Assembly: GCA_963708025.1 (NCBI GenBank)
Contig: CAVPSB010000002.1
Location: 288,001 to 352,000, forward strand
DNA length: 64,000 nt
Reading direction: 5' to 3'
Source: an uncultured Candidatus Rokubacteria bacterium
GTDB taxonomy: Bacteria; Methylomirabilota; Methylomirabilia; Rokubacteriales; DASRDR01
Part shown: piece after piece, positions 2,769 to 32,943 of the stretch
How positions within the stretch are numbered: the first letter of the stretch is position 1
How the letters are laid out: the number at the start of each line of letters is the position of its first letter
Notes under the pieces: model-generated
Database searches by the model: none
The model's input: the letters and a program-made list of their open reading frames with translations, nothing else
Told to the model about the DNA's origin: nothing
Made by a program: the position numbers and the translations under genes

Positions 2769-2784
2769 TGGCATGGTCGCTGCA
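2769..2784 (+). promoter_or_regulatory. Sigma-54 -24/-12 promoter
   Basis: TGGCATGGTCGCTGCA upstream of the gene at 2899. Confidence 0.55.
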
Positions 2785-2898
2785 CCCGGGGAACCAGCCG
2801 GACGCGGGCCGCCTGGCGGTTCGGCCCGAATGTGGCGCTCGGCCAGGGGGCTGGAGCACCGGCCGGTGTACCGACTCTCGCCGGAAAGAGGGGCGCTC

Positions 2899-4113
2899 AT
2901 GAGACTGCATCGACTGGCCGCCTGGGCGTTCGGGCTGGCCCTGGTCGTTCACGCGACGCCGGCCGCCGTGGGCCAGGAGCGACCGCCGCAGCCGTTCGCC
3001 CCCACGTGGGCCAACCTGGCCGGCGCCACCGTCTTCGCCAGCAAGGGGTGCGGGCGGTGCCACGCCATCCGGGGATTCGGGGCGACCGCCGGGCCCGACC
3101 TCAGCCGGATCGAGCAGAAGAGCTTCTTCGACCTGGGCGCCGCGCTCTCGAACCACCTCCGCGGTGTCGCCATCCAGCGCCCCACCTTGACCGCCGAGCA
3201 GGTCACCAGCCTGATCGCGTTCCTGTTCACCCTCCAGTACGCGGACCAGCCGGGCGACCCCCAGGCCGGAGAGCAGCTCTTCACCGCAAAGGGCTGCGTC
3301 CAGTGTCACGAGGTCGGGGGCAAGGGCGGCCGGCTGGGTCCGAGCCTGGACTTCCTCAAGCGCGCCAACTCGCCGGTTCTGATCGCGGCCGCCCTGTGGA
3401 ACCACGGCCCCGAGATGGTGGAGACGCTGAAGGCCGTCGGGATCGAGCGCCCGACCTTCGCCGGCCGGGAGCTGGCCGACATCATCGCCTTCGTCCAGAG
3501 CTCGCCCCGGGAGCCCGGCGCCGAGACGGCCCGGGTCGTGGCTGGAACCCCAGAGCGTGGTGAGAAGCTCGTCGCCGAGAAGCGTTGCCTGGCCTGCCAC
3601 TCCATCGCGGGCAAGGGCGGCAAGGTCGGTCCCGAGCTGGGCCGGCGCCAGCACGTCAGCCTCACGCAGTTCGCGGCGCTGATGTGGAACCACGCCCCGG
3701 GAATGTGGGCCCAGATGGCGGCGCGCGGGGTCCAGGTGCCCCGCATGACCGGTCAGGAGATGGCGGACATCGTGGCCTACCTGTACGCGTCCCATTACTT
3801 CGACCAGCCGGGCGATGCCGGCCGCGGGCAGCAGCTGCTCCAGGTCAAGGGTTGCGCGAGCTGCCACGCGATCCGGGGCACCGGGCCGAAGGTCGGGGCG
3901 GATCTGGCCTCCTATTCCGCGCTCCGCTCCACGGCCGGCCTGGTCGCCGCGCTGTGGAATCACCCGCGGTACCTCGCGGCGCAGCAGCGGGAGGTTCCCT
4001 GGCCGCTGTTGACCGGGCAGGAGCTGTCCGACGTCGCCGCCTACGTGAGCGGACTGCCGAAGGGAGCGACGCCCGGGCCGAAGGGCGCGACTCCCCGGCC
4101 GAAGGGCCCGTAG
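2899..4113 (+). CDS. Periplasmic tetraheme cytochrome c built of four class I-like domains
   Basis: Signal peptide; CGRCH, CVQCH, CLACH, CASCH, each followed by a (W/S)NH motif; start moved to ATG 2899 (GAGGGG RBS). Confidence 0.9.
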   Translation: MRLHRLAAWAFGLALVVHATPAAVGQERPPQPFAPTWANLAGATVFASKGCGRCHAIRGFGATAGPDLSRIEQKSFFDLGAALSNHLRGVAIQRPTLTAEQVTSLIAFLFTLQYADQPGDPQAGEQLFTAKGCVQCHEVGGKGGRLGPSLDFLKRANSPVLIAAALWNHGPEMVETLKAVGIERPTFAGRELADIIAFVQSSPREPGAETARVVAGTPERGEKLVAEKRCLACHSIAGKGGKVGPELGRRQHVSLTQFAALMWNHAPGMWAQMAARGVQVPRMTGQEMADIVAYLYASHYFDQPGDAGRGQQLLQVKGCASCHAIRGTGPKVGADLASYSALRSTAGLVAALWNHPRYLAAQQREVPWPLLTGQELSDVAAYVSGLPKGATPGPKGATPRPKGP

Positions 4114-4236: not shown

Positions 4237-4252
4237 TGGCACGACCGTTGCT
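4237..4252 (+). promoter_or_regulatory. Sigma-54 -24/-12 promoter of the cytochrome operon
   Basis: TGGCACGACCGTTGCT, an exact match to TGGCACG-N4-TTGCW, 45 nt upstream of ATG 4298. Confidence 0.85.
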
Positions 4253-4297
4253 GACCTGCACCTCCGACGCTGGATCGACGCCAACGGAGGGGACTTG

Positions 4298-4762
4298 ATG
4301 AGCCGTCAGCGGAACGTGTCGCGCAGTTCGAGGGCCTGGACGTTCTGGTCGCTCGCGGCCCTCACCGCGTTCCTCGCGCTGGGGGCCGGGCTCCTGTGGA
4401 TCCGGACGCCCGAGCCGGCGCCCACCGCCGCCGGGGGCCCGACCGTCTCCGCCGGCGGCCCCGGGAATGCGGTCGCGCGTCGCGAGACGCGACCGACGCT
4501 CGACCCGGCCCGCTTCGTCGGGAAGGCCGCCCGCGCCCACCAGGTGGCGCGGGAGATTCCCGACGTGCTGGACCGGCTCTACTGCTACTGCGAGTGCGAC
4601 CGGAACCTCGGTCACCGGAGCCTGCTCTCCTGCTACACCGACGGCCATGCCGCCACCTGAGGCATCTGCATGGACGAGGCGCTGGATGCGTCTCGCATGG
4701 TGAAGGCGGGGTACCCGGTGGAGCGGATCCGTTCCGAGATCGACCGGACGTACGGCCGATGA
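4298..4762 (+). CDS. PCYCGC/CYCXC-motif membrane-anchored protein, predicted selenoprotein (UGA 4658-4660 = Sec)
   Basis: GGAGG RBS; TM helix; LYCYCECDRNLGHRSLLSCYTDGHAAT-[TGA]-GICMDEALDASRMVKAGYPVERIRSEIDRTYGR*. The TGA sits at the first Cys of the family CxxC. The extended frame ends in an ATGA overlap with the next gene. Confidence 0.85.
4669..4699 (+). promoter_or_regulatory. Candidate bacterial SECIS hairpin
   Basis: CATG-GA-CGAGGCGC[TGGAT]GCGTCTCG-CATG; the loop starts 22 nt after the UGA and has G at position 2. Confidence 0.7.
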
Positions 4763-6705
4763 TCGCCCGGGCGCTCGGACTGGCCCTGGCCGTCCTGGTC
4801 CTCCCCGTCGCGGCCGCCGCCCACGGCGACGAGCACCGCGAGGCGACGCCCGCCGGGAGCACGGGGGGCGTGGTGGTCCAGGGCTACCGCATCGAGCTCC
4901 AGAGCCACGGCGGCCTCGCCGCCGGGCAGGCCGCGCACCTGATCGCCCGGATCTCACGCGAGGCGCCGCCCGCTCCGGTGTCCGGCGGGCGCGTGCTCGT
5001 CGGCCTGGCCGCGGCCGGAGCGATTCCGGATCCGGCGCCGGCCCCTGAGGCGACGTGGGCCGGGAGCTACGCCGTCCCGGTGACGCCGAGCCGGCGGGGC
5101 GTCTATCAGGCGCGGGTCGTCGTGGAGGAGCTGGACGGCCGGCACCTGCACCCGCCGATCGTCGTTGACTTCCCGCTGACCGTGGAGCCGGCGCCGGGAC
5201 TCGGCGCCGGCGTCTGGGCGCTGCTGGCGTTCGTCGCCGGCCTCGGGCTCCTCGGCGTGTACGGGGTCGCGCTGCGGGCGAAGCTGGCTCGACCGGGAGC
5301 CGCCCTGAACCTCCTCGAGGTCGGCTGGATTCGCCGGCTCCTGACCGCTCGCGCCCTGCAGCCGGCGCTGCAGGTCCCGTTGCTCGCCCTGATGGGCGTC
5401 GTGGTCTTCGTCGGCCTCACCGACGTCCAGGACGGCGGACGGAACCTGGCGACCAAGCTGACGTGGACCATCTGGTGGGCCGGGATCATCTTCACGTTCT
5501 TCCTGGCCGGGCGGGTCTGGTGTCTCGCCTGCCCGTTCGGCGCCCTCAACGAGTGGACCTCGCGGCTGGTCCGGCCGCTCCGGCGACTGCCGGCCGCGTT
5601 CCGCAACATCTGGTGGGCGACGGCCGCGTTCGTCCTCCTGACCTGGGCCGACGAGCAGCTCGGGGTCGTGCGGTCACCCCAGGTCACGGCCGGGATCGTC
5701 CTCTTCTTCGCCGCGCTCGCCGTCGCAATCGGCCTCTTCTACGAGCGACGGAGCTTCTGCCGGCACCTCTGTCCGATCGGCGGCCTCATCGGCGTCTACT
5801 CGATGACCGCTCCGGTCGAGCTGCGTGCCAGGGACGGCGCGGTGTGCGCGGCGGACCACGACAAGGCCTGCTATCGAGGCGGCGAGACGGCGCGCGGGTG
5901 CCCGATGTTCGAGTTCCCCGGGAGCATGGACCGGAACAACTACTGCACGCTGTGCGCCGAGTGCGTCAGCGGGTGCGCCCGCCACAACCTGGTGCTCCGG
6001 CTGCGCGCCTTCGGCCAGGACCTCTGGGCGACGCGGCGGCGGCTGCTCGACGAGTCGTACCTCGCGGTGGTGCTCGTCGGCCTCACGCTCCTGGTGACCG
6101 CCCAGATGCTCACCGCGTGGCCGGGCTGGATCTCCGCCCTCGCCGGTGGCCTGCCCGGCTGGGTTCGGGCGTCCCTCAAGCCGGTGACGTATCTCGGGCT
6201 GGTCGAGTCCGCCGTCCTCCTCGGGGGGAGCCTGGTCGTCGTCCCGGCGCTGGTGCTGGGGGGCGCCGCCGTCGCCGATCGGCTCGCCGGCGAGCGGCGG
6301 CTCGGCTTGCGGCGGACGTTCGTCGCCTTCGGCTACATGTTCGTCCCGGTCGGCCTCGCCATGCACCTCGCCCACAACCTCGCGCACCTGCTCCTCGAGG
6401 GCGGCGGCATCGTGCCGGTCGTCCAGCGGGTGGTCGCCCGGTACACGCCGTTCTCGCTCGGCGTGCCCGACTGGGATGTCACGCCGCTGGCGCCCGAGCC
6501 GGTGGTCGCCCTGCTCCAGGTGGCCTTCCTGGTCGGCTTCTTCGTCCTCTCGCTCCAGGCGGGGCACCGCCTGTCGCTCCGCCTCTACCCCGACGCGCGG
6601 GTGGCGAGCCGCGCGTGGATCCCGATGGCCGGGTTGGCCCTGCTCTTCACCCTGGCCGGCATCCTCCTGCTGATGCAGCCCATGGGGATGCGTCACGCGA
6701 TGTAG
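4759..6705 (+). CDS. Membrane polyferredoxin (NapH/MauN/FixG-like 4Fe-4S protein) with N-terminal periplasmic beta domain
   Basis: Signal peptide then AHGDEH; GRVWCLACPFG, RSFCRHLCPIGG, CPMFEFP, CTLCAECVSGC; many TM helices; start at ATG 4759. Confidence 0.85.
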   Translation: MIARALGLALAVLVLPVAAAAHGDEHREATPAGSTGGVVVQGYRIELQSHGGLAAGQAAHLIARISREAPPAPVSGGRVLVGLAAAGAIPDPAPAPEATWAGSYAVPVTPSRRGVYQARVVVEELDGRHLHPPIVVDFPLTVEPAPGLGAGVWALLAFVAGLGLLGVYGVALRAKLARPGAALNLLEVGWIRRLLTARALQPALQVPLLALMGVVVFVGLTDVQDGGRNLATKLTWTIWWAGIIFTFFLAGRVWCLACPFGALNEWTSRLVRPLRRLPAAFRNIWWATAAFVLLTWADEQLGVVRSPQVTAGIVLFFAALAVAIGLFYERRSFCRHLCPIGGLIGVYSMTAPVELRARDGAVCAADHDKACYRGGETARGCPMFEFPGSMDRNNYCTLCAECVSGCARHNLVLRLRAFGQDLWATRRRLLDESYLAVVLVGLTLLVTAQMLTAWPGWISALAGGLPGWVRASLKPVTYLGLVESAVLLGGSLVVVPALVLGGAAVADRLAGERRLGLRRTFVAFGYMFVPVGLAMHLAHNLAHLLLEGGGIVPVVQRVVARYTPFSLGVPDWDVTPLAPEPVVALLQVAFLVGFFVLSLQAGHRLSLRLYPDARVASRAWIPMAGLALLFTLAGILLLMQPMGMRHAM

Positions 6706-6732
6706 GCCGGACCGCAGAAAGGGAGACAGTCA

Positions 6733-7765
6733 GTGAAAAGCTGGAAATGGACGATCCCCACCCTGGTGCTCACCGCGGGCATCGGCCTCGGCGTCCTCGT
6801 CGGGCAGCCCGAGGCGCAGCAGAAGAACCTCCTCGTCTCGAAGAAGGTGGCCGCCGGGCCGACCCTCGACGGGACCATGAAGGACGCCTGGAAGGACGCC
6901 GCGCCCCTCACGGTCAAGGCCCTCGGCGGGAAGAACCTGCCCGGCGGCACGACCGAGATCACGATCCGCTCGGTGTACACCGAGGAGACCGTGTACTTCC
7001 TCGTCCAGTACAAGGACCCGACCGAGAGCGTCCAGCGCGAGCCGTGGCAGAAGCAGGCCGACGGCTCCTGGAAGCAGCTGAAGGACCCCGACGACAAGGG
7101 CGGGGACAACAACAAGTACTACGAGGACAAGCTGGCGATCCTCTGGAACATCAGCTCGCCGGCCTTCGAGCAGAAGGGCTGCCTGTCCGCCTGCCACACC
7201 GGCGAGGGCAAGCCGTACGGCAACAAGTACACCGCCGGCGCGGGCGAGCGGCTCGACATGTGGCACTGGAAGGGCGTGCGCACCGGCACCATCGGGCAGG
7301 TCGACGACCAGTACGTGGACAACACGAAGTACGACAAGGACAAGGCGCCCGAGGCCGGCCGCAAGAGCGACCCCAAGCACCGGCGGCGGCTACAAGAACA
7401 ACGTCAGCGACGACAAGAAGGGCCCGAAGTTCGCGCTGAAGCCGGCAACAAGCCGGCGCCGCCCTACTGGATCGTCGACGCCGAGAAGGAGCCGTTCGAC
7501 GACTCGCAAGTACAAGGCGGGCGACGAGGTGCCCGGGCATCGATCGTGGCGCCCTTCACCGGCGACCGCGGCGACATCGCGGCGAAGTCCACCTGGAAGG
7601 ACGGGGTCCGGACGGTCGAGATGGCGCGGAAGCTCGTCACCAACAGCGAGTTCGACGTGCAGTTCAACGACGAAGAAGGAGTACGCCTTCGGCGTCGCGG
7701 TCTTCGACAACGCCCAGGTGCGCCACGCCTACACCCCGGGCGTCCTGAAGATGGTCCTGGAATAG
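6733..7765 (+). CDS. Ethylbenzene-dehydrogenase-gamma-like (DOMON) heme-binding periplasmic protein, frameshifted in this assembly
   Basis: YFLVQYKDPTES, YYEDKLAILW, CLSACH, LDMWHWK, FGVAVFDNAQVRH. The frame switches at about 7378, 7440, 7507, 7540 and 7670; TAG at 7763-7765. Confidence 0.78.
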
Positions 7766-7820
7766 CACGGTCGGGCGCCGGCCCGGGGGAGTTCGCCTCC
7801 GGGCCGGCCGGAGGTCTGGC

Positions 7821-8189
7821 ATGACTCGATGGCTCGGTGTCGCGGCAGTCGTCGCCCTGCTGGTTGGCGGGCTCGTCTCCCAGGAGGTGGTTGCCCAGCC
7901 GAAGGGTGATCCGGCCAAGGGCGAGGCCCTGTACAAGGCCCGGTGCGTCACCTGTCACGGCGCGGCCGGCGCCGGCGACGGCCCGGCCGGGAAGGTGCTC
8001 AAGGACAAGCCCAAGGACTGGACCAAGGGCGAGGGCCTCAAGGATCTCTCGGACCAGCAGCTCTTCGACGCCATCAAGAAGGGCGGCAAGGCGATCGGCA
8101 AGTCGCCGGCGATGATCGCGTTCCCCAGTCTCTCCGACGCCGAGATCCAGAACGTGATCGCCTACGTCAAGACCCTGACCAAGTCGTGA
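7821..8189 (+). CDS. Monoheme cytochrome c
   Basis: Signal peptide; CVTCHG; distal Met candidate in AMIAFP; GGAGG RBS. Confidence 0.92.
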   Translation: MTRWLGVAAVVALLVGGLVSQEVVAQPKGDPAKGEALYKARCVTCHGAAGAGDGPAGKVLKDKPKDWTKGEGLKDLSDQQLFDAIKKGGKAIGKSPAMIAFPSLSDAEIQNVIAYVKTLTKS

Positions 8190-8199
8190 CGCGACCGGC

Positions 8200-9384
8200 A
8201 TGACCCGGCATCCGGCGACCGCCCTGGTCGCGGCACTCCTGCTGGCGGGGGCGGCGGCCACCGCCGCCGCCCAGCCGCTGTTCGGCCCGGCCCAGGACCC
8301 GGTCGCCGGCTCCCGGGTCTTCGGCGACAAGGGCTGCGTCAAGTGCCACGCGGTGAACGGGGTGGGCGGGAAGGTCGGCCCCGACCTGGGGCGGCCGCCG
8401 CGTCCGCGCTCGTTCTTCGACCTCGCGGCCGGCATGTGGAATCACCTCCCCCGGATGACGGAGCGCATGCGGGCGCTCGGCGTCGCGCGCCCGCGGCTCG
8501 ACCCGCGCGAGGCCGGGGACCTCATCGCCTTCCTCTTCACCCTCGACTACTTCGACCCGCCCGGCAACCCGCAGGTGGGTCGCCGCCTCTTCCAGCAGAA
8601 GAAGTGCGTCGTCTGTCACCAGGTGGGCGACGTCGGCGGCGTGGTCGGGCCGAGCCTCGACCACCTCAAGCAATACGGCTCGCCGATCTTCGTGGCCGCC
8701 GCCATGTGGAACCACGGGCCGGCGATGACGGAGACGATGCGGGCCCGGGGGATCGAGCGGCCCGTCTTCAAGGACGCCGAGCTGATCGACCTGATCGCCT
8801 ACATCAAGTCGGCCTCGCCGCTCCCGGTGGCGGGCCCGCTGTACGTCCTGCCGGGCCGCGCCGCCGAGGGCCACCGGCTCTTCGTCGAGAAGCGCTGCAG
8901 CGACTGCCACGGGGTCGCCGGGAAGGGCGGCGGGGTCGGCCCCGACCTGGCCGAGCGCGGCGTGCACCGGAGCCTGACCCAGTTCGCGGCCGGGATGTGG
9001 GACAAGGCGCCGGCCATGCTGGCCGCGATGACGGCCCGGGGCATCCCGGTGCCGCAGCTCCGGGCCGAGGAGATGGCCGACATCGTCGCCTACCTCTACG
9101 CCGTGCAGTACTTCGCCGTGCCCGGGGACCGGCAGCGGGGGGCGAGGGTGGCGAAGGACAAGGGCTGCCTCGGCTGCCACACCGTGCTGGCCCGGGACGG
9201 GACGGCGCCGGCGGAGCTGAGCCGGGTCGCCGGCCTGGAGTCCCCGGCGGGGGTCATCGGGGCGCTGTGGAACCATTCGTTCCTCGCCGAGCCCGCGGCC
9301 CGCAAGCGTGGCTGGTCCGCGCTCCGTCCCGACGAGATGGCCGACCTGCTGGCCTTTCTGCGGTCGCTCCGGCCTTCGCCATGA
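8200..9384 (+). CDS. Tetraheme cytochrome c, paralog of 2899..4113
   Basis: CVKCH, CVVCH, CSDCH, CLGCH with MWNH/LWNH motifs. Confidence 0.9.
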   Translation: MTRHPATALVAALLLAGAAATAAAQPLFGPAQDPVAGSRVFGDKGCVKCHAVNGVGGKVGPDLGRPPRPRSFFDLAAGMWNHLPRMTERMRALGVARPRLDPREAGDLIAFLFTLDYFDPPGNPQVGRRLFQQKKCVVCHQVGDVGGVVGPSLDHLKQYGSPIFVAAAMWNHGPAMTETMRARGIERPVFKDAELIDLIAYIKSASPLPVAGPLYVLPGRAAEGHRLFVEKRCSDCHGVAGKGGGVGPDLAERGVHRSLTQFAAGMWDKAPAMLAAMTARGIPVPQLRAEEMADIVAYLYAVQYFAVPGDRQRGARVAKDKGCLGCHTVLARDGTAPAELSRVAGLESPAGVIGALWNHSFLAEPAARKRGWSALRPDEMADLLAFLRSLRPSP

Positions 9385-10688
9385 GGCGGCCCCGCTGGCT
9401 CGCCGCCCTGAGCGGGCTCCTGTCGGCGCTGGCCCTGTCGGTCGCGGCGCCCGCGGCCGCCGCGCCGCCGGCCGAGACGTGCCCCGCCTGTCACCTGGCG
9501 ATCGGCGACGAGCGGCTGACGGCTCCGGTCAAGGCCTTCGCCGAGGACATCCATGCCGCGAAGGGGTTCGGCTGCGTCGCCTGCCACGGGGGCGACGGCA
9601 AGGACCCGGGCATGGAGGCGATGGATCGGGCGAAGGGGTACATCGGCAAGCCGGATCGCCGGCAGATCGTCCAGGTCTGCGGCCGGTGTCACGCCGATGC
9701 CCGGTTCATGAAGCAATACAACCCGGCGCTCCGCGTGGACCAGGTGGCCGAGTATGCGACCTCCGTCCACGGGCGCCGGCTGCGGGAGCTCGGTGATCCC
9801 AGGGTCGCGGTCTGCACGAGCTGCCACCCGGCCCACTCGATCCGGCCCCCGTCGGACCCGAAGTCGAGCGTTCATCCGGTCCAGGTCGCGGAGACGTGCG
9901 GGCGCTGTCACGCGGACCCGAAGCACATGGCCGGCTACAAGATCCCGACCGACCAGGTCCAGAAGTACAAGGCGAGCGTCCACTGGGCGGCGATGTCGGT
10001 GAAGGGCGACCTCTCGGCGCCGACGTGCAACGACTGTCACGGGAACCACGGGGCGGCGCCCCCGGGGATGTCGTGGGTGGGCAACGTCTGCGGCCAGTGC
10101 CACACCGTGATGGCGGACCTGTACGCCCGGAGCGCCCACGCGACGGTCTTCGCCCAGATGGGGGTCCCCGGCTGCGCGACCTGCCACGAGAACCACGCGA
10201 TCGAGGCGGCCAGCGACGAGCGGCTGGGGACCGGGGACAAGGCGGTCTGCGCCGGCTGTCACACCGCCGAGGACCCCGGCGGGAAGGCGGCGACCGAGAT
10301 GCGCCGGCAGATCGACTCGCTCGCCGGCGAGCACGAGCGGGCCCGCGCGATCCTGGCGAAGGCGGAGCAGTCCGGCATGGAGGTGAGCCAGGCGCAGTTC
10401 GACCTCAACGGCGCCAAGGACGCGCTGGTCAAGGCCCGGGCCGCCGTGCACGCGTTCAGGCCGGAGGCGGTGACGCGGGAGACGGAGCCCGGGCTGGCGA
10501 TCGGCAGCAAGGCGTATGCGCGCGGCGTTCGGGCCCTCGAGGAGCTCGCCTTCCGCCGGAAGGGACTGGCGGTCTCGGTCGTGATCATCCTGGCCCTGAT
10601 CGGGGGCCTCGTGCTGAAGATCCGGCAGCTCGAGCGCGGCCGGCCGGAGCCCGGCTCCGGGGGAGGGGAGCGGCCCGATGTGTTGTGA
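9381..10688 (+). CDS. Nonaheme cytochrome c with C-terminal membrane anchor
   Basis: ATG 9381 overlaps the upstream stop; signal peptide; 9 CxxCH; helical stalk and C-terminal TM LAVSVVIILALIGGLVL. Confidence 0.9.
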   Translation: MRRPRWLAALSGLLSALALSVAAPAAAAPPAETCPACHLAIGDERLTAPVKAFAEDIHAAKGFGCVACHGGDGKDPGMEAMDRAKGYIGKPDRRQIVQVCGRCHADARFMKQYNPALRVDQVAEYATSVHGRRLRELGDPRVAVCTSCHPAHSIRPPSDPKSSVHPVQVAETCGRCHADPKHMAGYKIPTDQVQKYKASVHWAAMSVKGDLSAPTCNDCHGNHGAAPPGMSWVGNVCGQCHTVMADLYARSAHATVFAQMGVPGCATCHENHAIEAASDERLGTGDKAVCAGCHTAEDPGGKAATEMRRQIDSLAGEHERARAILAKAEQSGMEVSQAQFDLNGAKDALVKARAAVHAFRPEAVTRETEPGLAIGSKAYARGVRALEELAFRRKGLAVSVVIILALIGGLVLKIRQLERGRPEPGSGGGERPDVL

Positions 10689-11136
10689 CCCGACGGTCGC
10701 GGTCGAGCCGAGCCGGCGGAGCTTCGTCAACTGGTTCCTCGGCACCAGCGCGGGGGCCTTCCTGCTGGCGGTCGCCTATCCCCTGACCCGGTACCTGGTC
10801 CCGCCCCAGGTCGCGGAGTCCACGGCCGGCAGCGTGACCCTCGCGATCGAGGCCGACCAGGTGAAGCCGAACACCGGGCAGATCTTCAAGTTCGGCAGCC
10901 GGCCGGCCATTCTCGTCCGGACGCCGGCCGGGGAGCTGCGGGCCTTCTCGGCCGTGTGCACGCATCTGAACTGCACCGTCCAGTACCGGCCGGACCTCAG
11001 CCACATCTGGTGCGCCTGCCACAACGGCCACTTCGACCTGAGCGGCCGGAACATCGCGGGCCCGCCCCCGCGACCGCTCGACGCGCTGGTCGTCAACGCG
11101 CGGGGCAAGCAGATCGTGGTGAGCAAGGGCGCCTGA
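10678..11136 (+). CDS. Rieske 2Fe-2S subunit of a cytochrome bc-type complex
   Basis: Tat motif SRRSFV; CTHLNC and CACHNGHF boxes; GPPPRPL. Confidence 0.95.
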
Positions 11137-11141
11137 GCCCC

Positions 11142-12245
11142 ATGAGCGCCGGCGTGGTTGGAGCGAAGCACGGCCGCCTCTGGCGCTGGCTCGACGAGCG
11201 CGTCGGGCTGGCCGAGATGGAGAAGCTCGCCCGGAAGAAGCAGGTCCCGGTTCACCGGCACACCATCTGGTACTACTTCGGCGGGATGACCCTCTTCCTG
11301 TTCCTGGTCCAGGTGACGACCGGCATCCTGCTCCTCCTCTACTACCGGCCCAGCGCCGAGGAGGCATACGAGTCGGTGCAGTTCCTGATGACGGAGGTGC
11401 AGTTCGGCTGGCTCGTCCGGTCCATCCACGCGTGGGCGGCAAACCTCATGGTCCTCACCCTCTTCGTCCATCTCTTCAGCGTGCTGCTGCTGGCCGTGTA
11501 CCGCCGGCCCCGCGAGCTCACGTGGGCCTCGGGCGTCGGCCTGATGGGCCTCGCCCTCGGCTTCGGGTTCACGGGATACCTCCTCCCGTGGAACGAGCTG
11601 TCGTACTTCGCGACCAAGGTGGGCACGGAGATCACGGGCGCCGTCCCCCTGGTGGGGGGGTTCCTCCGACGCCTGCTGCGGGGCGGGGACGAGGTGACCG
11701 GCGCCACCCTGACGCGATTCTACGGGATCCACGTCGCCGTCCTTCCGGCGCTGACCACACTGCTCCTCGGCCTCCACCTCTTCCTGGTCCAGAAGCACGG
11801 GATGAGCGTCCCACCCGGCGTGGCGCGGCGGGGCGGGGCCGGGCGGAGCATGCCGTTCTTCCCCAACTTCCTGCTGCGGGACCTCGTGGGCTGGCTCTCG
11901 GCCCTGGCGGTCCTGGCCGCCCTGGCGGCGTACCTCCCGGCCGAGCTGGGCCGGAAGGCCGATCCGTTCGCCGCGGCCCCGGCGGGCATCAAGCCGGAGT
12001 GGTACTTCATGTTCATGTTCCAGACGCTGAAGTACCTCCCGAGCTACATCCTCGGCGTCGAGGGCGAGATCGTCGGGGTCGTCGGCTTCGGCCTCGGGGG
12101 CCTCTTCCTCCTGCTGGTGCCGTTCCTGGATCGACGGGCCGGGCGCGGCGAGCCCAATCGGCTGTTCATCGCGATCGGCCTCGCGATCATCGCCTACATG
12201 CTCGTGCTGACCTACCTCGGCTACGTGGCGAGCCCGACGAAGTGA
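11142..12245 (+). CDS. Cytochrome b subunit of a bc-type complex
   Basis: [34 protein letters not shown], and the Qo-site KPEWY motif; start ATG 11142. Confidence 0.95.
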
Positions 12246-12917
12246 CCACGCGAGGACCGCTCGGCGCGCTCCTGCTGGGCGCGACCCTGGGCGCCGCCGT
12301 GCTCGCCGCCGCCGCCCGGGCCGCCGAGCCGCCGGGGGACGCCGGGCGCGGGGCCGCGGTCTTCACGGCGAAGGGCTGCGGGCGCTGCCATCTCCCGAGC
12401 GACCGGGGGCCGGGATGGGGCCGGCCCTCGGCGAGGTCCGGCGACCCCAGGGGATGCTGGAGCTGACCGGCCGGCTGTGGAATCACGCGCCGGCCATGTT
12501 CGCGGCGTTCGAGACAGCAGGGGCTCCCGTGGCCCGGGATGACGCGCGAGGAGATGGCCGACCTGGCCGCCTACCTCCAGGCCGATCCGACCCGCGATCC
12601 CAGGCCGGATCTCTTCCAGGGCCGCGTCACGCTGGTCCGCAAGGGCTGTCTCAAGTGTCACACCCTCCGGGGGGAGGGCGGCTCGGCGGCGATCGAGCTG
12701 TCGACGTATCATGGGCGCTACGAGTCGCCCGTGACCTGGGCCACGACCGTCTGGAACCACGCCCCCCGCATGGCGGCCGTCGCCTCCCGGCTCGAGCGTG
12801 CTCTATCCGCGCTTCTCCGGAGACGAGATGGCGCACCTCTTCCGCTTCCTGCAGAGCGCCGCCGCCACGGCGGGGGCGGATCGGGGGGGTCTTCCGCGAC
12901 CCCCCCGAGGGATCTAG
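12242..12917 (+). CDS. Diheme cytochrome c of the same WNH-repeat family, frameshifted in this assembly
   Basis: GTG overlaps the cytochrome b stop; signal peptide, [30 protein letters not shown]. The frame switches near 12412, 12522 and 12795; TAG at 12915-12917. Confidence 0.75.
12881..12908. repeat. Solo copy of the REP-like hairpin
   Basis: TCGGGGGGGTC-TTCCGC-GACCCCCCCGA, related to the hairpins at about 43050, 52215, 63045 and 63290. Confidence 0.6.
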
Positions 12918-12919
12918 AC

Positions 12920-13291
12920 GTGGCAACGGCTCGCCGGGTCCGCCTCGTCCTCGCTGCCGGCCTCGCCCTGGCGTCCGGGGTCGCGGCCGGTGTCCTGGCC
13001 GCCGCCCCGGCGGTGCCGCCGGTGACGATCCCGCCCGACTTCGTGCTCCCCAAGGCCGAGAGCAGCCCGGGCCCGGTTCCCTTCAGTCACGCGAAGCACC
13101 TCCCGAAGGTGGAGAAGTGCACCCGGTGCCACATGCGCGGCTTCAAGCTCGGGCTCGGCCAGTCGGGGCCGATCACGCTGGAGGCGCTGATGCAGGGCAA
13201 GTTCTGCGGAGCCTGCCACGACGGGAAGACGACGATGGCGGGGAGCGTCGTCTTCCCGATCGACGCGTGCGACCGGTGCCATCCCTCGTGA
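12920..13291 (+). CDS. c7-type triheme cytochrome
   Basis: GTG 12920; signal peptide; VPFSHAKH, CTRCH, MQGKFCGACHDG, CDRCH. Confidence 0.88.
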   Translation: MATARRVRLVLAAGLALASGVAAGVLAAAPAVPPVTIPPDFVLPKAESSPGPVPFSHAKHLPKVEKCTRCHMRGFKLGLGQSGPITLEALMQGKFCGACHDGKTTMAGSVVFPIDACDRCHPS

Positions 13292-13319
13292 GCGCGCCCG
13301 TCGCCCCGGGTGAGCCGGC

Positions 13320-14222
13320 ATGACCGAGCCCGAGGAGGGCCAGGTCCGCCGCCGGCCCCATGCTGACCACCGCCGCCGCCGGCTCGTCCTCGTCGTCCTG
13401 GGCGGGCTCCTCGTCGTGGGAGCCGTCGGGCTGGCCGGACTCTGGCAGGTGAGCGCGAGCCCGCAGTTCTGCAATTCGTGCCACATCATGGAGCCCTACG
13501 TCCAGGCCTGGAAGGTCTCCAAGCACGCCGCCGTCGCCTGCGTCGACTGCCACTATCCCCCCGGCCTCCGGGACACGCTGTGGGTGAAGTACCAGGCGAT
13601 CAGCCAGGTCGCGAAGTGGGCGACCCGGACGTACAGCTCCAAGCCCTTCGCGGAGGTCGAGGACGCGAGCTGCCTCCGCTCGGGCTGCCACGCCCTGGCC
13701 CGGCTCGAGAGCAAGGGCCCCGCCGAGTTCAAGCGCGGCGTGCGGTTCGACCACCGCCCGCATCTGGCCGCGGAGAAGATGGGTCGCGCGCTCCGGTGCA
13801 CGAGCTGCCACTCGCAGATCGTGGTGGAGAAGCACTTCGAGGTGGACCAGCGGAGCTGCTTCCTCTGCCACTTCAAGGGCACGAAGCACGGACGGGAGCT
13901 GACCCCGATCGCCGGCTGCACTGGCTGTCACCAGCCGCCGTCGGGTGACATCCTCGTCGGGTCAATCCGGTTCAACCACCAGGAGGTCGTGGGCCGCGGC
14001 GTCGCCTGCGAGAAGTGCCACCTGCGCGTCGTCGAGGGGGACGGGGAGGCGCCCCGCGAGCGGTGCCTCTCCTGCCACAACCAGCCCGAGAAGCTCCAGC
14101 GCTTCGAGGACCGGGCGCTCGTCCACGCCGTCCACGTCGCGCGCCACACGATCGACTGCAGCCGCTGTCACGGCGAGATCCGGCATCGGCTGCCACCCCC
14201 CATCGGGCTCCCGGCGTCATGA
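13320..14222 (+). CDS. NapC/NirT-like membrane-anchored multiheme cytochrome (8 CxxCH + 1 CX4CH)
   Basis: N-terminal TM helix, SPQFCNSCHIM, CVDCH, CLRSGCH and six further CxxCH. Confidence 0.88.
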   Translation: MTEPEEGQVRRRPHADHRRRRLVLVVLGGLLVVGAVGLAGLWQVSASPQFCNSCHIMEPYVQAWKVSKHAAVACVDCHYPPGLRDTLWVKYQAISQVAKWATRTYSSKPFAEVEDASCLRSGCHALARLESKGPAEFKRGVRFDHRPHLAAEKMGRALRCTSCHSQIVVEKHFEVDQRSCFLCHFKGTKHGRELTPIAGCTGCHQPPSGDILVGSIRFNHQEVVGRGVACEKCHLRVVEGDGEAPRERCLSCHNQPEKLQRFEDRALVHAVHVARHTIDCSRCHGEIRHRLPPPIGLPAS

Positions 14223-15556
14223 GGCCCGCCCCCGCGCTCCTCATCCTGATCCTGCTCGCCGCCGCCAGCTCGATCGGCGCCCAGGGCGTGCGCCCGCCCG
14301 AGCCGCCGGGGGCCCGGACCGGGGCCCCGGCGCCGGCGCCTCCGGCGGCGGTCCACCGCCCCGGCGAGCTCGACTGCCAGAACTGTCATCAGGGCAAGCA
14401 CCAGGGCGTGGTGCGGATGTACCTCGGGATGGGCGGGCGGGGAACGCCCATGATCCCGAGCCACATGGTCCAGGTGCGGGTCGAGTGCGCGGCCTGTCAC
14501 ATCGCGCCGAAGGAAGAGGAGCTCTGGGCCGGCATCGTCGGCCAGACGTTCCGGCCGAGCGAGCAGGCGTGCATCGGCTGCCACGGGGAGAAGTATCGCG
14601 GAATGCTGGGGCGGTGGGCGAGCACGCTGGTCCGGATGCAGGAGCTCCTGGCCCCCAAGCTGGCGGCGGCCCGGGGCGCGGTCGGCGCCGGCGACCCGAA
14701 GGACCCGAAGCGGGTGCGCGCGGGCCGGCTCCTGGACGACGCCGAGTTCAACAGCCGCTTCGTCGCGCTGGCCAGAGGCGTGCACAACGTCTTCTATGCC
14801 GCCGACCTGCTGAAGCTCGCGAACGGCTGGGTCGAGGAAGCGGCCGTGCTGGCGGGCAAGCCGGTCGTCCGGGGCGACGACACGCTCATCCGCGGGGGCT
14901 ACTGCGCCGTCCTCTGCCACGAGCAGGCCGGCGTGAAGCTGAAGGACACGGTCACCTTCGCCGACCGGAAGCTGCCGCACGCCCGGCACACGACGGAGTT
15001 CGGCGCGGTGTGCACGAGCTGTCACTCGGCCGAGGTCCACAAGGCGGTGACCGCCACCCCCGCGGCCTGTACCGCCTGTCACCACGGCCCGCAGAACGAC
15101 CGGTGCGAGGGCTGCCACCGCGCCCAGAGCGCCTTCTACCGGGGCCAGGCGCGCACCGACCACGGGCCCGTCGCGCCGAACCTGATGGCGGAGGCCGTGC
15201 CGTGCACCGGCTGTCACGATCTCGCGCGCAAGCACTCGCGAGCGGCGGTCGGGGAGAGGTGCCGGGCTTGCCACGAGCCGCCCTACCTGGCGCTGCTCGG
15301 CGAGTGGACGGTCGGGTTCGACCGGGACGCCGGGCGGGCGACCGCGGCGCTCCAGCGGGCGGAGGCGGCGCTCGCGAGCGCCCGGAAGGCCGGCCGGCCG
15401 ACCGGCGAGGGGGAGGCGCTCGTGAAGGAGGCCCGGCGGGCGCTGGCCCTCGTCCGCGGCGCCCGGGGCGCCCACAACCCGCTGGCCGCCGACGCGCTGC
15501 TCGAGGGCGCCCGGCAGAAGGCCGAGGCGGCGCTGGCGATGGTGGGACGGAAGTGA
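14219..15556 (+). CDS. Multiheme cytochrome c (8 CxxCH + 1 CX3CH)
   Basis: ATG 14219 overlaps the upstream stop; signal peptide; two heme clusters, each followed by a helical segment with GVHN/GAHN. Confidence 0.87.
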   Translation: MRPAPALLILILLAAASSIGAQGVRPPEPPGARTGAPAPAPPAAVHRPGELDCQNCHQGKHQGVVRMYLGMGGRGTPMIPSHMVQVRVECAACHIAPKEEELWAGIVGQTFRPSEQACIGCHGEKYRGMLGRWASTLVRMQELLAPKLAAARGAVGAGDPKDPKRVRAGRLLDDAEFNSRFVALARGVHNVFYAADLLKLANGWVEEAAVLAGKPVVRGDDTLIRGGYCAVLCHEQAGVKLKDTVTFADRKLPHARHTTEFGAVCTSCHSAEVHKAVTATPAACTACHHGPQNDRCEGCHRAQSAFYRGQARTDHGPVAPNLMAEAVPCTGCHDLARKHSRAAVGERCRACHEPPYLALLGEWTVGFDRDAGRATAALQRAEAALASARKAGRPTGEGEALVKEARRALALVRGARGAHNPLAADALLEGARQKAEAALAMVGRK

Positions 15557-16416
15557 GCCGCCGGCGCCGCGAGGAGCGCGCGCGGCAGGAGGCAGCCCTC
15601 CTCCAGGCGGGGCGCCCGCAGTGGCTGGTCGCCGCGCTGAGCGCGGTCGGGCTGGCGGTCGCCGGGTACCTGGCGGTGACGAAGCTCGCGGGCGGCGGCG
15701 CCCTGTTCTGCCGGGGCGTCGGCGGCTGCGAGGTGGTGCAGCAGAGCCGCTACGCGACCTTCCTGGGGCTGCCCACCGCGGCCTGGGGCGCCTTCGTCTA
15801 CGCGGCCGTCGGGGGCCTGGCCCTCGCCGGCCTCGCCCCCTGGCGCTGGCTCGCGGCCTTCGCGCTGGCGGCGGCGGCCGTCGCCTTCTCCGGCTACCTG
15901 ACCTACCTGGAGCTGTTCGTCATCGGGGCGGTCTGCTGGTACTGCGTGGTGTCGGCGGCGACGGCCACGGCGGTCCTGGGCGTGCTGCTCGGGCGCCGGC
16001 CGCCGAGCGGGCGGCACGGCCCGACCGCGCCGGCCCGGGTCGTGGGGGTGGGAGGGGCGTCGGCGCTGGGCGCCGTGGTGCTCGGCATCGCGGTCTTCGC
16101 CGCGACCGCCCCCGGCGGCGCCCCCGGCTACCAGGAAGCCCTCGCCCGCCACCTCGCCCAGAGCGGCGCGGTCATGTACGGCGCCTTCTGGTGACCCGCC
16201 TGCAAGGAGCAAAAGGCCCGGTTCGGGCCTGCCGCCGACCTCCTCCCCTACGTCGAGTGCGACCCGCGCGGATCCGGGGCGCGGCCCGACCTGTGCCAGC
16301 GCGTCGGCGTCCGCGGCTATCCGACCTGGACGGTCGGCGGGGAGCGCCTCGAAGGCGTCCTGTCCCTCGATCGCCTGGCCGAGCTCTCCCGCTACCAGCC
16401 CCCCGCGGGTCACTGA
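15553..16416 (+). CDS. VKOR-thioredoxin-like fusion, predicted selenoprotein (UGA 16192-16194 = Sec)
   Basis: GTG overlaps the upstream stop. VKOR motifs CRGVGGC..SRYATFLGLP..CWYC, then MYGAFW-[TGA]-PACKEQKARFG..YVECDP..CQRVGVRGYPTW..TGA 16414-16416. The internal TGA replaces the first Cys of WCxxC. Confidence 0.88.
16209..16232 (+). promoter_or_regulatory. Candidate bacterial SECIS hairpin
   Basis: GC-AAA-AGGCCCG[GTT]CGGGCCT-GC; the loop begins with G, 25-26 nt after the UGA. Confidence 0.7.
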
Positions 16417-16526
16417 CCCCGGGGGGCCGGAAGCTCTTCTTGGTGTAAGCTAGGACGGCAGCGACCGGGAGGATCGGCCTCCCGGCCGCGCGCCGAGCTC
16501 GACGCTTTCGAAGGAGGAGCATCGGG

Positions 16527-16898
16527 ATGACACGAGGAATCCGTGCGGGAGTCGTCGTGGCCGCCGCCGTTGGCGTGGTGTCCCTGACCGTCGGGTTCGC
16601 GGCCGGCCAGGCCAAGGGGGACGCGAAGGCCGGCGAGCCCGTGTACAAGGCGAAGTGCGTCACCTGTCACGGCGCGGCCGGCAACGGCGACACCCCGGCC
16701 GGGAAGGCGCTGAACCCGAAGCCGCGGGACTGGACGAAGGGCGACGGGCTCGACCTCACCGACCAGCAGCTCTTCGACTCGATCAAGAAGGGGGGCGCGG
16801 CGGTCGGGCGGGGGAAGACGATGATCGCCTTCCCGACCCTGTCGGACACCGAGGTCTGGAATCTCGTCGCCTACGTCAAGTCGCTGAAGAAGTCCTGA
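16527..16898 (+). CDS. Monoheme cytochrome c, close paralog of 7821..8189
   Basis: AAGGAGG RBS; CVTCHGAAG..DWTKG..MIAFP shared with the 7821 gene. Confidence 0.92.
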   Translation: MTRGIRAGVVVAAAVGVVSLTVGFAAGQAKGDAKAGEPVYKAKCVTCHGAAGNGDTPAGKALNPKPRDWTKGDGLDLTDQQLFDSIKKGGAAVGRGKTMIAFPTLSDTEVWNLVAYVKSLKKS

Positions 16899-17071
16899 GC
16901 GGAGGCTCGGCGCAGGCCGGCGCGGGCGCGGGGGGGTCAGCGGGCCGAGGCCGCGTTCACCCCCGCGCCCGCCGCGGCGAGCCGGGCCGCCCGCAACCGG
17001 CCCACGAGCCGCCTATCCGGGGTTTCCGGAGACGCGCTCGCAGTCCGACCAGCGGGGGCGTCCGCCCTCGG

Positions 17072-17281
17072 CTACAGCAGTTCCTTGGCGCGGAGGTCCG
17101 CCAGCACCGCACCCGCCAGGAGCGCGAGCGCGACCAGGAAGAGCGCCTGGCCCAGGAACATGAAGATCGTGAAGGCGGTCGGCATGTTCCGCACGAGCAC
17201 GACGAGCGCCATCACGTCGAAGACGGCGGTCAAGAGGATCGCGAGCTGCAGCGCGCGGACGCGGCGTGGCTGTCCGGTCAT
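17072..17281 (-). CDS. Small two-TM membrane protein
   Basis: ATG overlaps the stop of the NapC-like gene (ATGA); two hydrophobic helices. Confidence 0.7.
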   Translation of the reverse strand: MTGQPRRVRALQLAILLTAVFDVMALVVLVRNMPTAFTIFMFLGQALFLVALALLAGAVLADLRAKELL

Positions 17282-17982
17282 CGGGAGGCCGCCTGCTTCG
17301 GCTCCGGATGGGCCGGGGCATGACAGCTCAGACAGGGGATCGTGTCGTTCACCATGTTGGGCACCAGCTCTGTTGGGTGTCCCGGCGAGTTGAGGAACTT
17401 CTGCGAGGCCCCGTGGCAGCCCAGGCAGCGCAGGCTCGGGTAGGGGTGCGCGATCTTGATCGGCAGCGTGTACGAGCCGATCAGGGACCGCCACACGTGA
17501 CCGAGGCCCGCCAGCTTCGCACCGAGCGTCCCCGTGAGCCCGTAGTCGGAATGACACGTGTAGCAGTGCTTGTCCTGGATGTACCGGTTCTTGAAGTGCG
17601 TGGCCGCCAGGGTGGCGCTCTGAGGGTTCCGGAGGTCCGCGACGAAGGGGGTCATGACGTGGCAGCCGCCACACGAGTTGACGGTGGACGAGCTCTCCAG
17701 GCCGGAGGCGAACGACAGGAAGGCCACCATCATGGGAACCAGGCCGACGGCCACCAGGAGCCACCCGCGCGCGGTGGGGGTCAGCCCGGACCGGCGCAGG
17801 GTGCGCCAGGCCACCGCGAGCAGCGCCAGGTTGAAGAGTGCGAAGACGATCCCCAGCCCCTGGAGCCACTGGTCGGTCGTCCCGATCCAGCCGCGGGGGA
17901 GGGGAACGGCGTCCTCGGCCGCGACCGCGGCGAGGGGCGCCAGCAGCACTAGGAAGGGGGCGGCCAGGGCGGTCCCGTTCAT
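17278..17982 (-). CDS. NapC/NirT (CymA-like) tetraheme quinol-interacting cytochrome with extra N-terminal TM helices
   Basis: GGAGGAG RBS, ATG 17982; CGGCHVM, CYTCH, CLGCH, CLSCH after the TM segments. Confidence 0.82.
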   Translation of the reverse strand: MNGTALAAPFLVLLAPLAAVAAEDAVPLPRGWIGTTDQWLQGLGIVFALFNLALLAVAWRTLRRSGLTPTARGWLLVAVGLVPMMVAFLSFASGLESSSTVNSCGGCHVMTPFVADLRNPQSATLAATHFKNRYIQDKHCYTCHSDYGLTGTLGAKLAGLGHVWRSLIGSYTLPIKIAHPYPSLRCLGCHGASQKFLNSPGHPTELVPNMVNDTIPCLSCHAPAHPEPKQAASR

Positions 17983-18101
17983 ACGCGCTCCTCCGGAAGT
18001 TCGATCGGTCCCGGGGATTATGGCGGAGCGGCGGCCGGTCTGGCAACTCCCGGCTCCGCGGCTCCCGGGCCTGGGGGTCCCGGGATAGTGCATTTTCCTC
18101 A

Positions 18102-18130
18102 TTGACGCGCCGGGACCCCGGTCCTAGTAT
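18102..18130 (+). promoter_or_regulatory. Sigma-70-type promoter of the mtrAB-like pair
   Basis: TTGACG-N17-TAGTAT. Confidence 0.6.
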
Positions 18131-18184
18131 CGGCACCAATCCAGCGCAGTCGTTCCTCCGACGGAACCAGGGAGGACCCCGAGC

Positions 18185-19141: not shown

Positions 19142-19150
19142 GAGGCCGTC

Positions 19151-21434: not shown

Positions 21435-21464
21435 TTGACCGCGGCGAGGGCCGCCGGGTACTGT
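21435..21464 (+). promoter_or_regulatory. Sigma-70-type promoter, possibly giving a leaderless mRNA
   Basis: TTGACC-N18-TACTGT ending 6 nt before GTG 21471. Confidence 0.45.
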
Positions 21465-21470
21465 GTCGGC

Positions 21471-30617: not shown

Positions 30618-31064
30618 CTACCACAGGAATGGCTCGACGGCCGCGGCCCGGGCCGGGGACTCGCGAATCACGGCCCGGAGGAGGTCGCGCTCGGTGACGA
30701 TGCCGGTGAGTCGGCCGTTCTCGACGACGGGCACGCTGCCGATCCGCCGCTCGTACATGAGCGCGGCGGCGCGGGCCACGGCGGCGTCGGGCTCGACCGT
30801 GACGACACCGCAGGTCATCACGTCCTGGACCTGCAGGTCGTGGTCTGCCTCGCGCAGGGCGTGGCAGCGGGCGAGCACGGCCTGGCGCAGGTCCCGATCC
30901 GTCACGATGCCGACGAGGCGGCCGTCCGGCTCCACGACGGGCAGGTGGCGGATCTCCCGCGCCCGCATGGCGGTGAGGGCCGCTCCCAAGGGCGCGTCCG
31001 GCGTGATCGTGACGGGGTCGCGGCTCATGAGGTCGCGAACGCGGAGCCGGCTGATCGGGCTCAT
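30618..31064 (-). CDS. CBS-domain protein
   Basis: Two CBS repeats (IRHLPVV..GIVTDRDL; IGSVPVV..GIVTERDL). Confidence 0.9.
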   Translation of the reverse strand: MSPISRLRVRDLMSRDPVTITPDAPLGAALTAMRAREIRHLPVVEPDGRLVGIVTDRDLRQAVLARCHALREADHDLQVQDVMTCGVVTVEPDAAVARAAALMYERRIGSVPVVENGRLTGIVTERDLLRAVIRESPARAAAVEPFLW

Positions 31065-31092
31065 GGTGCTATGTCCCTGGCGGTCGGCTCCT

Positions 31093-31650: not shown

Positions 31651-31686
31651 CAGGATTCTCTCCGCTTCAGGCGGCCGGGCCGCGCG

Positions 31687-32927: not shown

Positions 32928-32943
32928 TCGGCGAGGCCTTCGA

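Follow-up and report, generated by a model that had tools for sequence, protein, structure and literature searches.

A Rokubacteriales operon of Rieske/cytochrome b, multiheme cytochromes and two predicted selenoproteins, and its linkage to MtrA/MtrB genes

Organization of the operon and of the adjoining mtrAB genes

The window analyzed here is a stretch of 64,000 nucleotides (G000:C2:288001-352000) from the genome of an uncultured bacterium of the order Rokubacteriales, hereafter the source genome (G000; 8.17 Mb, 49 contigs, 72% G+C, 99.67% complete, 8.18% contaminated). The lineage agrees with the source names on close homologues ('Methylomirabilota bacterium', 'Candidatus Rokubacteria bacterium', 'candidate division NC10') and with Candidatus Methylomirabilota as the most frequent phylum in the protein Atlas. 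The window carries a 13-gene operon that encodes a Rieske/cytochrome b pair, a series of mono- to multiheme cytochromes and, as its first and last products, two predicted selenoproteins, the CYCXC protein and a fusion of vitamin K epoxide reductase with thioredoxin (VKOR-Trx). Downstream lie the genes of an MtrA-type decaheme cytochrome and an MtrB/PioB-type outer-membrane porin, which are contiguous with the operon in relatives. We regard it as probable that the operon supplies the inner-membrane and periplasmic components of a conserved Rokubacteriales supercluster that ends in MtrA/MtrB and constitutes an extracellular electron-transfer (EET) pathway, the two selenoproteins being separate modules.

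Open reading frames (ORFs) were called with guidance from the G+C content at third codon positions (GC3), translated and searched with Pfam and NCBIfam profiles. The comparison set consisted of 183 genomes of the order, many of them incomplete metagenome-assembled genomes (MAGs); counts over these genomes are descriptive only, since kin are not independent. From genomes of the order, 30 CYCXC loci and 30 VKOR loci were fetched for site-level comparison, and 80 metagenome contigs with CYCXC were added, of which 55 loci with at least 800 nt downstream served for neighbour counts.

The original prediction of 13 co-oriented genes behind a consensus sigma-54 promoter was confirmed by the ORF calls, both profile collections and a motif search: all 13 lie on the + strand in the order proposed, and their coordinates reveal that the junctions are overlaps or short gaps. 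The -24/-12 promoter (TGGCAC-N5-TTGCT, 4237-4252, + strand) is located 46 nt before the start of the CYCXC gene. The pattern TGGCAY-N5-TTGC occurs twice in the window vs. 0.08 times as expected from shuffles, the second exact match being at 45986-46000 on the - strand. TGGCAY-N5-(T/A)TGC is found upstream of CYCXC in 26 of the 30 loci from relatives; for one of the four loci without it, no more than 49 nt upstream were available. The source genome contains rpoN, and no gene for an enhancer-binding protein was seen within 10 kb upstream or in the scanned genes of the window.

At the centre of the operon (coordinates refer to the + strand unless stated otherwise) a nonaheme cytochrome c with a C-terminal membrane helix (c9; 9381-10688, nine CxxCH), a Rieske 2Fe-2S protein with a twin-arginine anchor (10678-11136) and a cytochrome b (11142-12245) follow one another. 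The Rieske protein scores 46.7 bits on PF00355 (cut-off 20.3) and possesses the CxH...CxxH motifs (CTHLNC ... CACHNGH) together with an extra Cys pair. In the cytochrome b, b6 and subunit IV are fused (PF00033, 179 bits; PF00032, 42 bits), with KPEWYF as Qo motif. The nonaheme cytochrome is the probable c1 equivalent of this complex. The source genome holds two cytochrome b loci, the second of which (G000:C13:364077-364628, L132) possibly belongs to a housekeeping complex III. Judged by its family, the NrfH/NapC-type membrane cytochrome (13320-14222; PF03264, eight CxxCH and one CX4CH, below the cut-off of the NrfH NCBIfam model) would provide a second link to the quinone pool. The PEWY-bearing Rieske/cytochrome b pair and the NrfH/NapC-type cytochrome agree with the quinone-linked periplasmic electron-transfer system that had been proposed. 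Two quinone-pool couplers are encoded with about 38 further c-heme sites, next to MtrAB; these sites are carried by class-I mono-, di- and tetraheme proteins, a c7 triheme protein and an 8-9-heme periplasmic protein.

The class-I proteins of the operon comprise a monoheme cytochrome c (7821-8189; Pfam, one heme motif), a tetraheme cytochrome built from four class-I domains (c4; 8200-9384; Pfam, four CxxCH) and a diheme cytochrome (12242-12917; two heme motifs), frame-broken in the assembly and intact in the relatives G006 and G013. A c7-type triheme cytochrome with an N-terminal anchor (12920-13291; TIGR04257, 62 bits vs. cut-off 40; three CxxCH) precedes the NrfH/NapC-type gene, and a periplasmic multiheme cytochrome (c8; 14219-15556; Pfam, eight CxxCH and one CX3CH) comes after it. 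The operon opens with the gene of CYCXC (OS_HP4, Pfam PCYCGC; 4298-4762), whose stop is overlapped by the start of a gene (4759-6705) for a NapH/CcoG-like membrane polyferredoxin that has a signal peptide and an N-terminal domain in the periplasm. Between the latter and the monoheme gene lies that of an EB_dh-family heme protein (6733-7824, probable true end 7765; PF09459, 129.7 bits vs. cut-off 33.3) with one CX3CH motif (CLSACH), and the VKOR-Trx gene (15553-16416) is the last of the 13.

The original prediction had to be revised with regard to the end of the operon at 16416 and to the conclusion that the substrate was unknown because no catalytic terminal reductase or oxidase is recognisable in the window. 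A second monoheme class-I cytochrome c gene (16527-16898; Pfam, heme motif count) is the 14th co-oriented gene, and a search from 16350 to 18250 revealed no intrinsic terminator. After a NapC/NirT-like tetraheme membrane cytochrome on the - strand (17278-18102; profile matches, heme count), the region 18185-21380 encodes an MtrA/DmsE-family decaheme cytochrome (18185-19141; ten CxxCH; TIGR03508, 262.9 bits vs. cut-off 192.2) and an MtrB/PioB outer-membrane porin (19151-21380), present in two frames in the assembly, whose C-terminal piece reaches 276.9 bits on TIGR03509 (cut-off 240.05). No MtrC/OmcA protein exceeded the cut-off in the genome, the best TIGR03507 score being 19.1 bits vs. 209.3.

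Selenocysteine sites of CYCXC and VKOR-Trx

The first and last genes of the operon contain in-frame TGA codons, at 4658-4660 in CYCXC (UxxC) and at 16192-16194 in VKOR-Trx (FWUPAC). Since the selenocysteine (Sec) machinery is present, TGA and hairpin are conserved and Cys-form homologues exist, both codons are predicted to be read as Sec, in line with the original prediction, which had also proposed to look for Sec and heme maturation genes in the source genome. Of these, selA, selB and selD were found above cut-offs, tRNA-Sec was detected with ARAGORN, and cytochrome c maturation genes are present. The selD gene (G000:C7:91381-92304, L011) has an in-frame TGA itself and probably encodes a selenoprotein; a second selD-like match, with no stop, is on contig C23 of the same genome. 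Selenocysteine insertion sequence (SECIS) hairpins are predicted after both UGAs, at about 4669-4699 and 16214-16230. Single-sequence folding z-scores of the two regions are unremarkable (-0.77 and +0.56), and the case for the SECIS elements therefore rests on conservation, with no covariation since nothing varies.

CYCXC scores 131.4 bits on NF041379 (cut-off 90), with its CYCxC and U/CxxC motifs aligned. It has matches in 43 of the 183 genomes, nearly all with one TGA; in 30 of the 30 loci compared the TGA is followed by the invariant hairpin GAGGCGCTGGA-N-GCGTCTC, and all 80 metagenome contigs possess an in-frame stop at the Sec site. Among full-length homologues from other lineages, 31 of 32 have Cys in the Sec column. 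The alignments show C96, C98, C100, H106, C112, H117, U121 and C124 to be invariant, and the entries in public protein sets end at the UGA (110-122 aa). The polyferredoxin gene lies directly after CYCXC in 24 of 30 genome loci (of the other six, two are at contig ends) and in 42 of 55 metagenome loci, and its start often overlaps the CYCXC stop in relatives. On the other side, a tetraheme class-I cytochrome c gene, in the window at 2773-4113 on the + strand (Pfam Cytochrom_C, four CxxCH; a paralogue of c4), is a conserved upstream neighbour in many relatives. At one locus (L095, G174:C71) a stand-alone homologue of the thioredoxin domain of the VKOR protein, with no stop codon, is found about 300 nt after CYCXC.

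The polyferredoxin matches Fer4_5 (46.8 bits vs. cut-off 22), scores below the NapH family model (TIGR02163, 38.4 bits vs. cut-off 213) and shares with proteins of the NapH/CcoG type the conserved CxxCP membrane motifs as well as the ferredoxin cysteines. CYCXC, with its N-terminal membrane anchor, would expose a Cys/His-rich domain to the periplasm, and the two proteins would together form a redox pair across the membrane, with a periplasmic thiol or metal centre as the target of reduction. PMC13188914 and PMC9312934 include CYCXC among the known selenoprotein families; neither its pairing with the polyferredoxin nor its place at the head of a Rieske/cytochrome b operon was found in the parts of these two papers at hand. 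The constant pairing offers a first functional handle on the family.

VKOR-Trx matches PF07884 with 91 bits, and the loop Cys pair (FCRGVGGC) and the membrane CWYC motif are present in its sequence. A VKOR homologue was detected in 76 of the 183 genomes, 39 with one TGA and 37 without. In 29 of the 30 loci compared, the TGA is followed by the near-invariant GAGCAAAAGGCCCGGTTCGGG; the single Cys-form locus (TGC) is without the hairpin. Within the hairpin, 5 of 9 third codon positions are invariant, vs. 1 of 17 downstream. A Cys-form homologue (P0019, 56% identical to the window protein) aligns to 3KP9 and 4NV2 over both domains (E = 8e-39), reaching residues 25-278 of 4NV2, which places Sec at the first Cys of the thioredoxin CxxC. 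In genus g20 (G144, G139, G141 and G138) the VKOR-Trx genes each have one in-frame TAG; its position at the Sec site was considered and rejected, since the one locus checked (L078) has TGC there and the TAG elsewhere. Sec forms are stored truncated in public protein sets (212-217 aa) as 'uncharacterized membrane protein' or 'vitamin K epoxide reductase family protein', and annotation pipelines could thus recover many full-length proteins.

Like the Synechococcus VKOR-Trx (3KP9, 4NV2), the window protein has the loop Cys pair, the membrane CxxC and the thioredoxin CxxC position; unlike in the former, the first Cys of the thioredoxin CxxC is replaced by the predicted Sec, with a SECIS of its own. 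By analogy, VKOR-Trx(Sec) would oxidise periplasmic thiols and pass the electrons to quinone, Sec sitting at the attacking position of the CxxC. It is the sole VKOR of the source genome, and no DsbB was detected in this 99.67%-complete genome; VKOR-Trx is therefore probably the general disulfide oxidase of the cell, and may be housekeeping rather than one of the operon's own maturation parts, as the original prediction had it. The extra Cys pair of such Rieske proteins forms a disulfide, so that the Rieske protein and other envelope proteins would need a disulfide oxidase, and the cytochrome/Rieske/MtrAB machinery would depend on VKOR-Trx. If it is the only disulfide-forming enzyme, periplasmic protein folding would be selenium-dependent in this organism.

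Current selenoprotein catalogues do not appear to include the VKOR-Trx selenoprotein. The portions of PMC13188914 and PMC9312934 available to us mention neither VKOR nor vitamin K, deep-Sep does not mention them either, and the literature searched yielded no paper on a bacterial VKOR selenoprotein; Haft and Tolstoy 2025 and Deng et al. 2026 may list the VKOR form. A Methylomirabilota MAG with 63 predicted selenoproteins is attributed to Deng et al. 2026 in PMC13188914.

Conservation, known analogues and proposed role

The cluster is conserved in about a quarter of the 183 genomes of the order, and DNA blocks 72-82% identical to it extend to relatives in several families; the synteny check suggested with the original prediction thus had a positive outcome. 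The nonaheme, c7 and NrfH-like genes keep the same order across families and in the 80 metagenome contigs. In G006 (contig C78) a single strand carries CYCXC, polyferredoxin, EB_dh, c4, c9, Rieske, cytochrome b, diheme, c7, NrfH-like, c8, MtrA and MtrB, with mtrA directly after c8 and mtrB next to it. Contig C40 of G057 retains the order of the window within 15 kb (CYCXC at 18.5, c9 at 23.4, VKOR at 32.5 and MtrA at 33.5 kb), and contig C95 of G061 holds c9, VKOR and MtrA. Among the 30 VKOR loci, six have mtrA after VKOR and six have c8 before it, 11 showing either arrangement. Both c9 and MtrA were detected in 45 of the 183 genomes and they co-occur in 29, where about 11 would be expected if they were independent. 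Of the 34 genomes that match CYCXC strongly, 27 have c9, as do 23 of 39 genomes with the TGA form of VKOR vs. 6 of 37 with a form lacking TGA. MAGs of Bryobacterales, Thermoanaerobaculia, Armatimonadetes and Myxococcales keep only the Rieske-cytochrome b-nonaheme core; on one Thermoanaerobaculia contig Rieske, cytochrome b and c9 are followed by MtrA and MtrB. No catalytic reductase or oxidase was seen in the cluster of any relative examined. The two selenoprotein genes had been proposed to bracket the operon. This holds in the window and in G057, the only genomes seen in which CYCXC and VKOR enclose it on one contig; the two selenoproteins are otherwise better described as separate modules.

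The contiguity of the MtrA/MtrB conduit with the operon in relatives makes an extracellular substrate likely (Fe/Mn minerals, humics), and we are fairly confident of an EET pathway as such. Electrons would pass between quinol/quinone and MtrA via the periplasmic cytochromes, and would be exchanged across the outer membrane with Fe/Mn minerals or humic matter. As to direction, we slightly favour outward respiration under oxygen limitation, on the basis of the sigma-54 promoter, the PAS kinase, Usp (universal stress protein), CBS and hemerythrin neighbours and the precedent of the Geobacter Ext cluster. Oxidation of Fe(II) or minerals, in the manner of MtoAB/PioAB, would be suggested by the lack of a detected MtrC and by the many class-I cytochromes, which resemble the Mto/Pio systems of iron oxidisers, and is slightly less favoured. 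The Rieske/cytochrome b-MtrAB gene link provides a concrete route for electron exchange with minerals or humics in Rokubacteriales, uncultured bacteria that are widespread in soils and sediments and about whose energy metabolism there is mostly conjecture, and bears on how complex-III-type enzymes join EET.

The closest known analogue is the extHIJKLMNOPQS cluster of Geobacter sulfurreducens, which according to PMC5877670 encodes a porin, a Sec-cytochrome, 12- and 10-heme cytochromes, a Rieske protein and a cytochrome b, and whose products are reported there to rise on Fe(III) oxide. The original statement that no characterised system has such a composition remains valid in detail, but has to be qualified by this resemblance. 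As far as the Ext cluster is described there, both encode a Rieske protein and a cytochrome b with an about 10-heme cytochrome beside the Rieske gene, and both combine further multiheme cytochromes, an outer-membrane porin and a selenoprotein in one conserved cluster. On the other hand, all matches to Ext models are below cut-off (ExtP 214.5 vs. 290, ExtQ 19.6 vs. 150, ExtS 35-59 vs. 100 bits). The porin here is of the MtrB/PioB type with an MtrA decaheme, whereas ExtI is phosphate-porin-like; the selenoproteins are CYCXC and VKOR-Trx instead of the cytochrome ExtKL. The cytochrome b is fused, there is no rhodanese, and the phylum is a different one.

With MtrAB, MtoAB and PioAB of Shewanella, Sideroxydans and Rhodopseudomonas the cluster shares an MtrA/DmsE decaheme and an adjacent MtrB/PioB porin, both over cut-offs, and a NapC/NirT-type quinone-pool cytochrome adjoining the conduit. 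Mto and Pio clusters are not known to contain MtrC, and none was found in the source genome either. Unlike in these systems, the conduit is joined here to a Rieske/cytochrome b/nonaheme complex, to about 38 further heme sites and to two selenoproteins. Variant Rieske/cytochrome b complexes with multiheme c subunits occur in Deltaproteobacteria and in Planctomycetes/anammox bacteria. They resemble the present one in that a multiheme cytochrome replaces c1 and that several Rieske/cytochrome b loci exist per genome (two here), and differ from it in the subunit set, here nonaheme plus tetraheme class-I, and in its link to MtrAB. No description of such a cluster or junction was found in the literature searched on Rieske and MtrB or on Rokubacteria and EET.

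Several observations weigh against an EET pathway formed by operon and mtrAB together. In the window a monoheme gene and an opposite-strand gene stand between the two, and a sigma-70-like match (TTGACG-17-TAGTAT, 18102-18130) lies just upstream of mtrA, the corresponding pattern having 2 matches in 1.9 kb vs. 0.0 in shuffles. In 19 of the 30 VKOR loci no cluster gene is found within 1.5 kb; 16 of 45 c9 genomes are without detected MtrA and 16 of 45 MtrA genomes are without c9 (many of these being incomplete MAGs), and G013, which is 99% complete, has the operon and VKOR with no MtrA orthologue at E<=1e-60. A high-potential Rieske centre fits poorly with delivery to low-potential Fe(III) oxides. 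Gene linkage rests on contigs, which cannot show one transcript; and with three genes out of frame in the assembly, the pathway may be defective in this strain.

Part of these points would suit a self-contained quinone-linked periplasmic chain for a soluble substrate, equipped with dedicated selenium-based thiol-redox and maturation factors and functionally independent of MtrAB. Operon and mtrAB each have a site of their own in the window, a sigma-54 promoter for the former and a promoter-like match for the latter, G013 and also G028 have core and VKOR with no MtrA orthologue detected, and CYCXC and VKOR occupy the two ends here and in G057. We nevertheless judge such a chain quite improbable: mtrAB directly follows c8 or VKOR in several relatives, c9 and MtrA co-occur well above the independent expectation, VKOR is the only VKOR or DsbB-type enzyme detected in the genome, and no relative supplied a catalytic enzyme within the cluster. 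The housekeeping look of VKOR would suit an ordinary respiratory regulon, in which the Rieske/cytochrome b complex and the class-I cytochromes feed oxidases or N-oxide reductases encoded elsewhere, and the multiheme, VKOR and mtrAB genes are mere neighbours in a hypoxia or stress island. The five class-I cytochrome genes are of a kind usually serving oxidases, and Usp, CBS, hemerythrin and PAS-kinase genes surround the cluster. The second cytochrome b locus, however, could be the housekeeping complex, and both the order of nonaheme, c7 and NrfH-like genes, kept across families and in 80 metagenome contigs, and the contiguity with MtrAB in relatives speak against mere neighbourhood, which makes this explanation unlikely.

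Metal or metalloid handling as in Geobacter Ext (selenite/tellurite reduction), or a copper or iron reductase with CYCXC and the CcoG-like polyferredoxin as catalytic parts and the cytochromes as electron supply, is highly unlikely in our estimation. The cytochrome b does reach 214 bits on the ExtP model, the cytochromes match ExtS weakly, a selenoprotein and a porin are likewise part of the Ext cluster (PMC5877670), and a related polyferredoxin cluster is found with NosL in 20% of its members (Atlas score 0.76, a lead only); yet every Ext model remains below its cut-off, and no ExtI-type porin, rhodanese or ExtKL was seen, the porin being MtrB-type. A more ambitious version of the EET pathway, to which we likewise accord a low probability, would be a respiratory supercomplex in which a Q-cycle Rieske/cytochrome b complex is hard-wired to MtrAB for energy-conserving electron exchange with minerals. 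There the selenoproteins would be working redox parts instead of helpers in maturation, with CYCXC, polyferredoxin and EB_dh forming a new transmembrane electron loop to a periplasmic Sec/Cys-metal site and the Sec-containing VKOR-Trx feeding electrons from thiols into the same quinone pool.

Frame breaks and other features of the region

Three genes, those of the EB_dh protein, the diheme cytochrome and MtrB, are out of frame in this assembly and intact in relatives. The diheme gene has three frame changes (near 12400, 12522 and 12795) and is a single ORF of about 200 aa in G006 and G013. About five changes affect the EB_dh gene (7377-7672, with shifted stretches at about 7377-7442 and 7505-7540); its true C-terminus is in another frame after 7672 and ends at 7765, the orthologues having 343 aa. 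MtrB is split into two frames near 19746-19771 and is in a single frame in G006. A TGA at 12464-12466 in the diheme gene was considered as a third Sec codon and rejected, since the orthologues use another frame there.

Public sequencing runs were compared by means of Logan contigs 90-99% alike to the window, which are not the window's own reads (the best-matching run shares at most 0.32 of the sampled words of the window) and can show neither expression nor one transcript. Contigs of this kind from four runs have indels at the break sites that restore the orthologous frame, the rows listed being those at 7377-7672; a contig of X5 covers 12016-12864 with 3 gaps, and contigs of X18 and X7 cross the MtrB break with one gap each. 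The habitat labels of the runs (soil, wetland, sediment, bog) derive from small word shares and were left out of account. X18 is an RNA library whose contigs match parts of CYCXC, polyferredoxin, EB_dh/monoheme, c9/Rieske, MtrA and MtrB, which is no evidence of transcription. Real mutations, and hence a pathway decaying in this genome, would explain why all nine frame changes are confined to three genes with intact neighbours, a clustering by gene that is unusual for random consensus error. We nevertheless lean towards assembly error and hold decay to be rather doubtful, since the breaks are at or near G/C runs, some of them form compensating pairs 35-65 nt apart, and the frame is restored in contigs from the four runs. 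In the same window, at 23562-25010, short ORFs match parts of ChrB and the chromate transporter (ChrA) only, and this fragmentation suggests a general indel problem in the assembly.

The surroundings of the operon resemble an island of stress or low-oxygen genes. Beyond mtrAB there are genes of the hemerythrin, response-regulator, Usp and CBS types, and a triple-PAS histidine kinase is encoded upstream of the window. Within the window, CBS-domain, universal-stress, hemerythrin, RtcB/archease and chaperonin-family genes were noted at 1438-2076, 21435-22058 and 30618-35519.

Finally, a GC-rich palindromic element of about 60 nt, resembling repetitive extragenic palindromic (REP) sequences and assigned to no strand, was located between the diheme and c7 genes (12857-12924). 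It is predicted to form a strong hairpin, has 71 blastn matches in the source genome, some of them to a 29-nt core only, and recurs in related genomes; it is missing from this position in a near-identical metagenome contig. The element runs into the end of the diheme ORF and stops at the c7 start codon.

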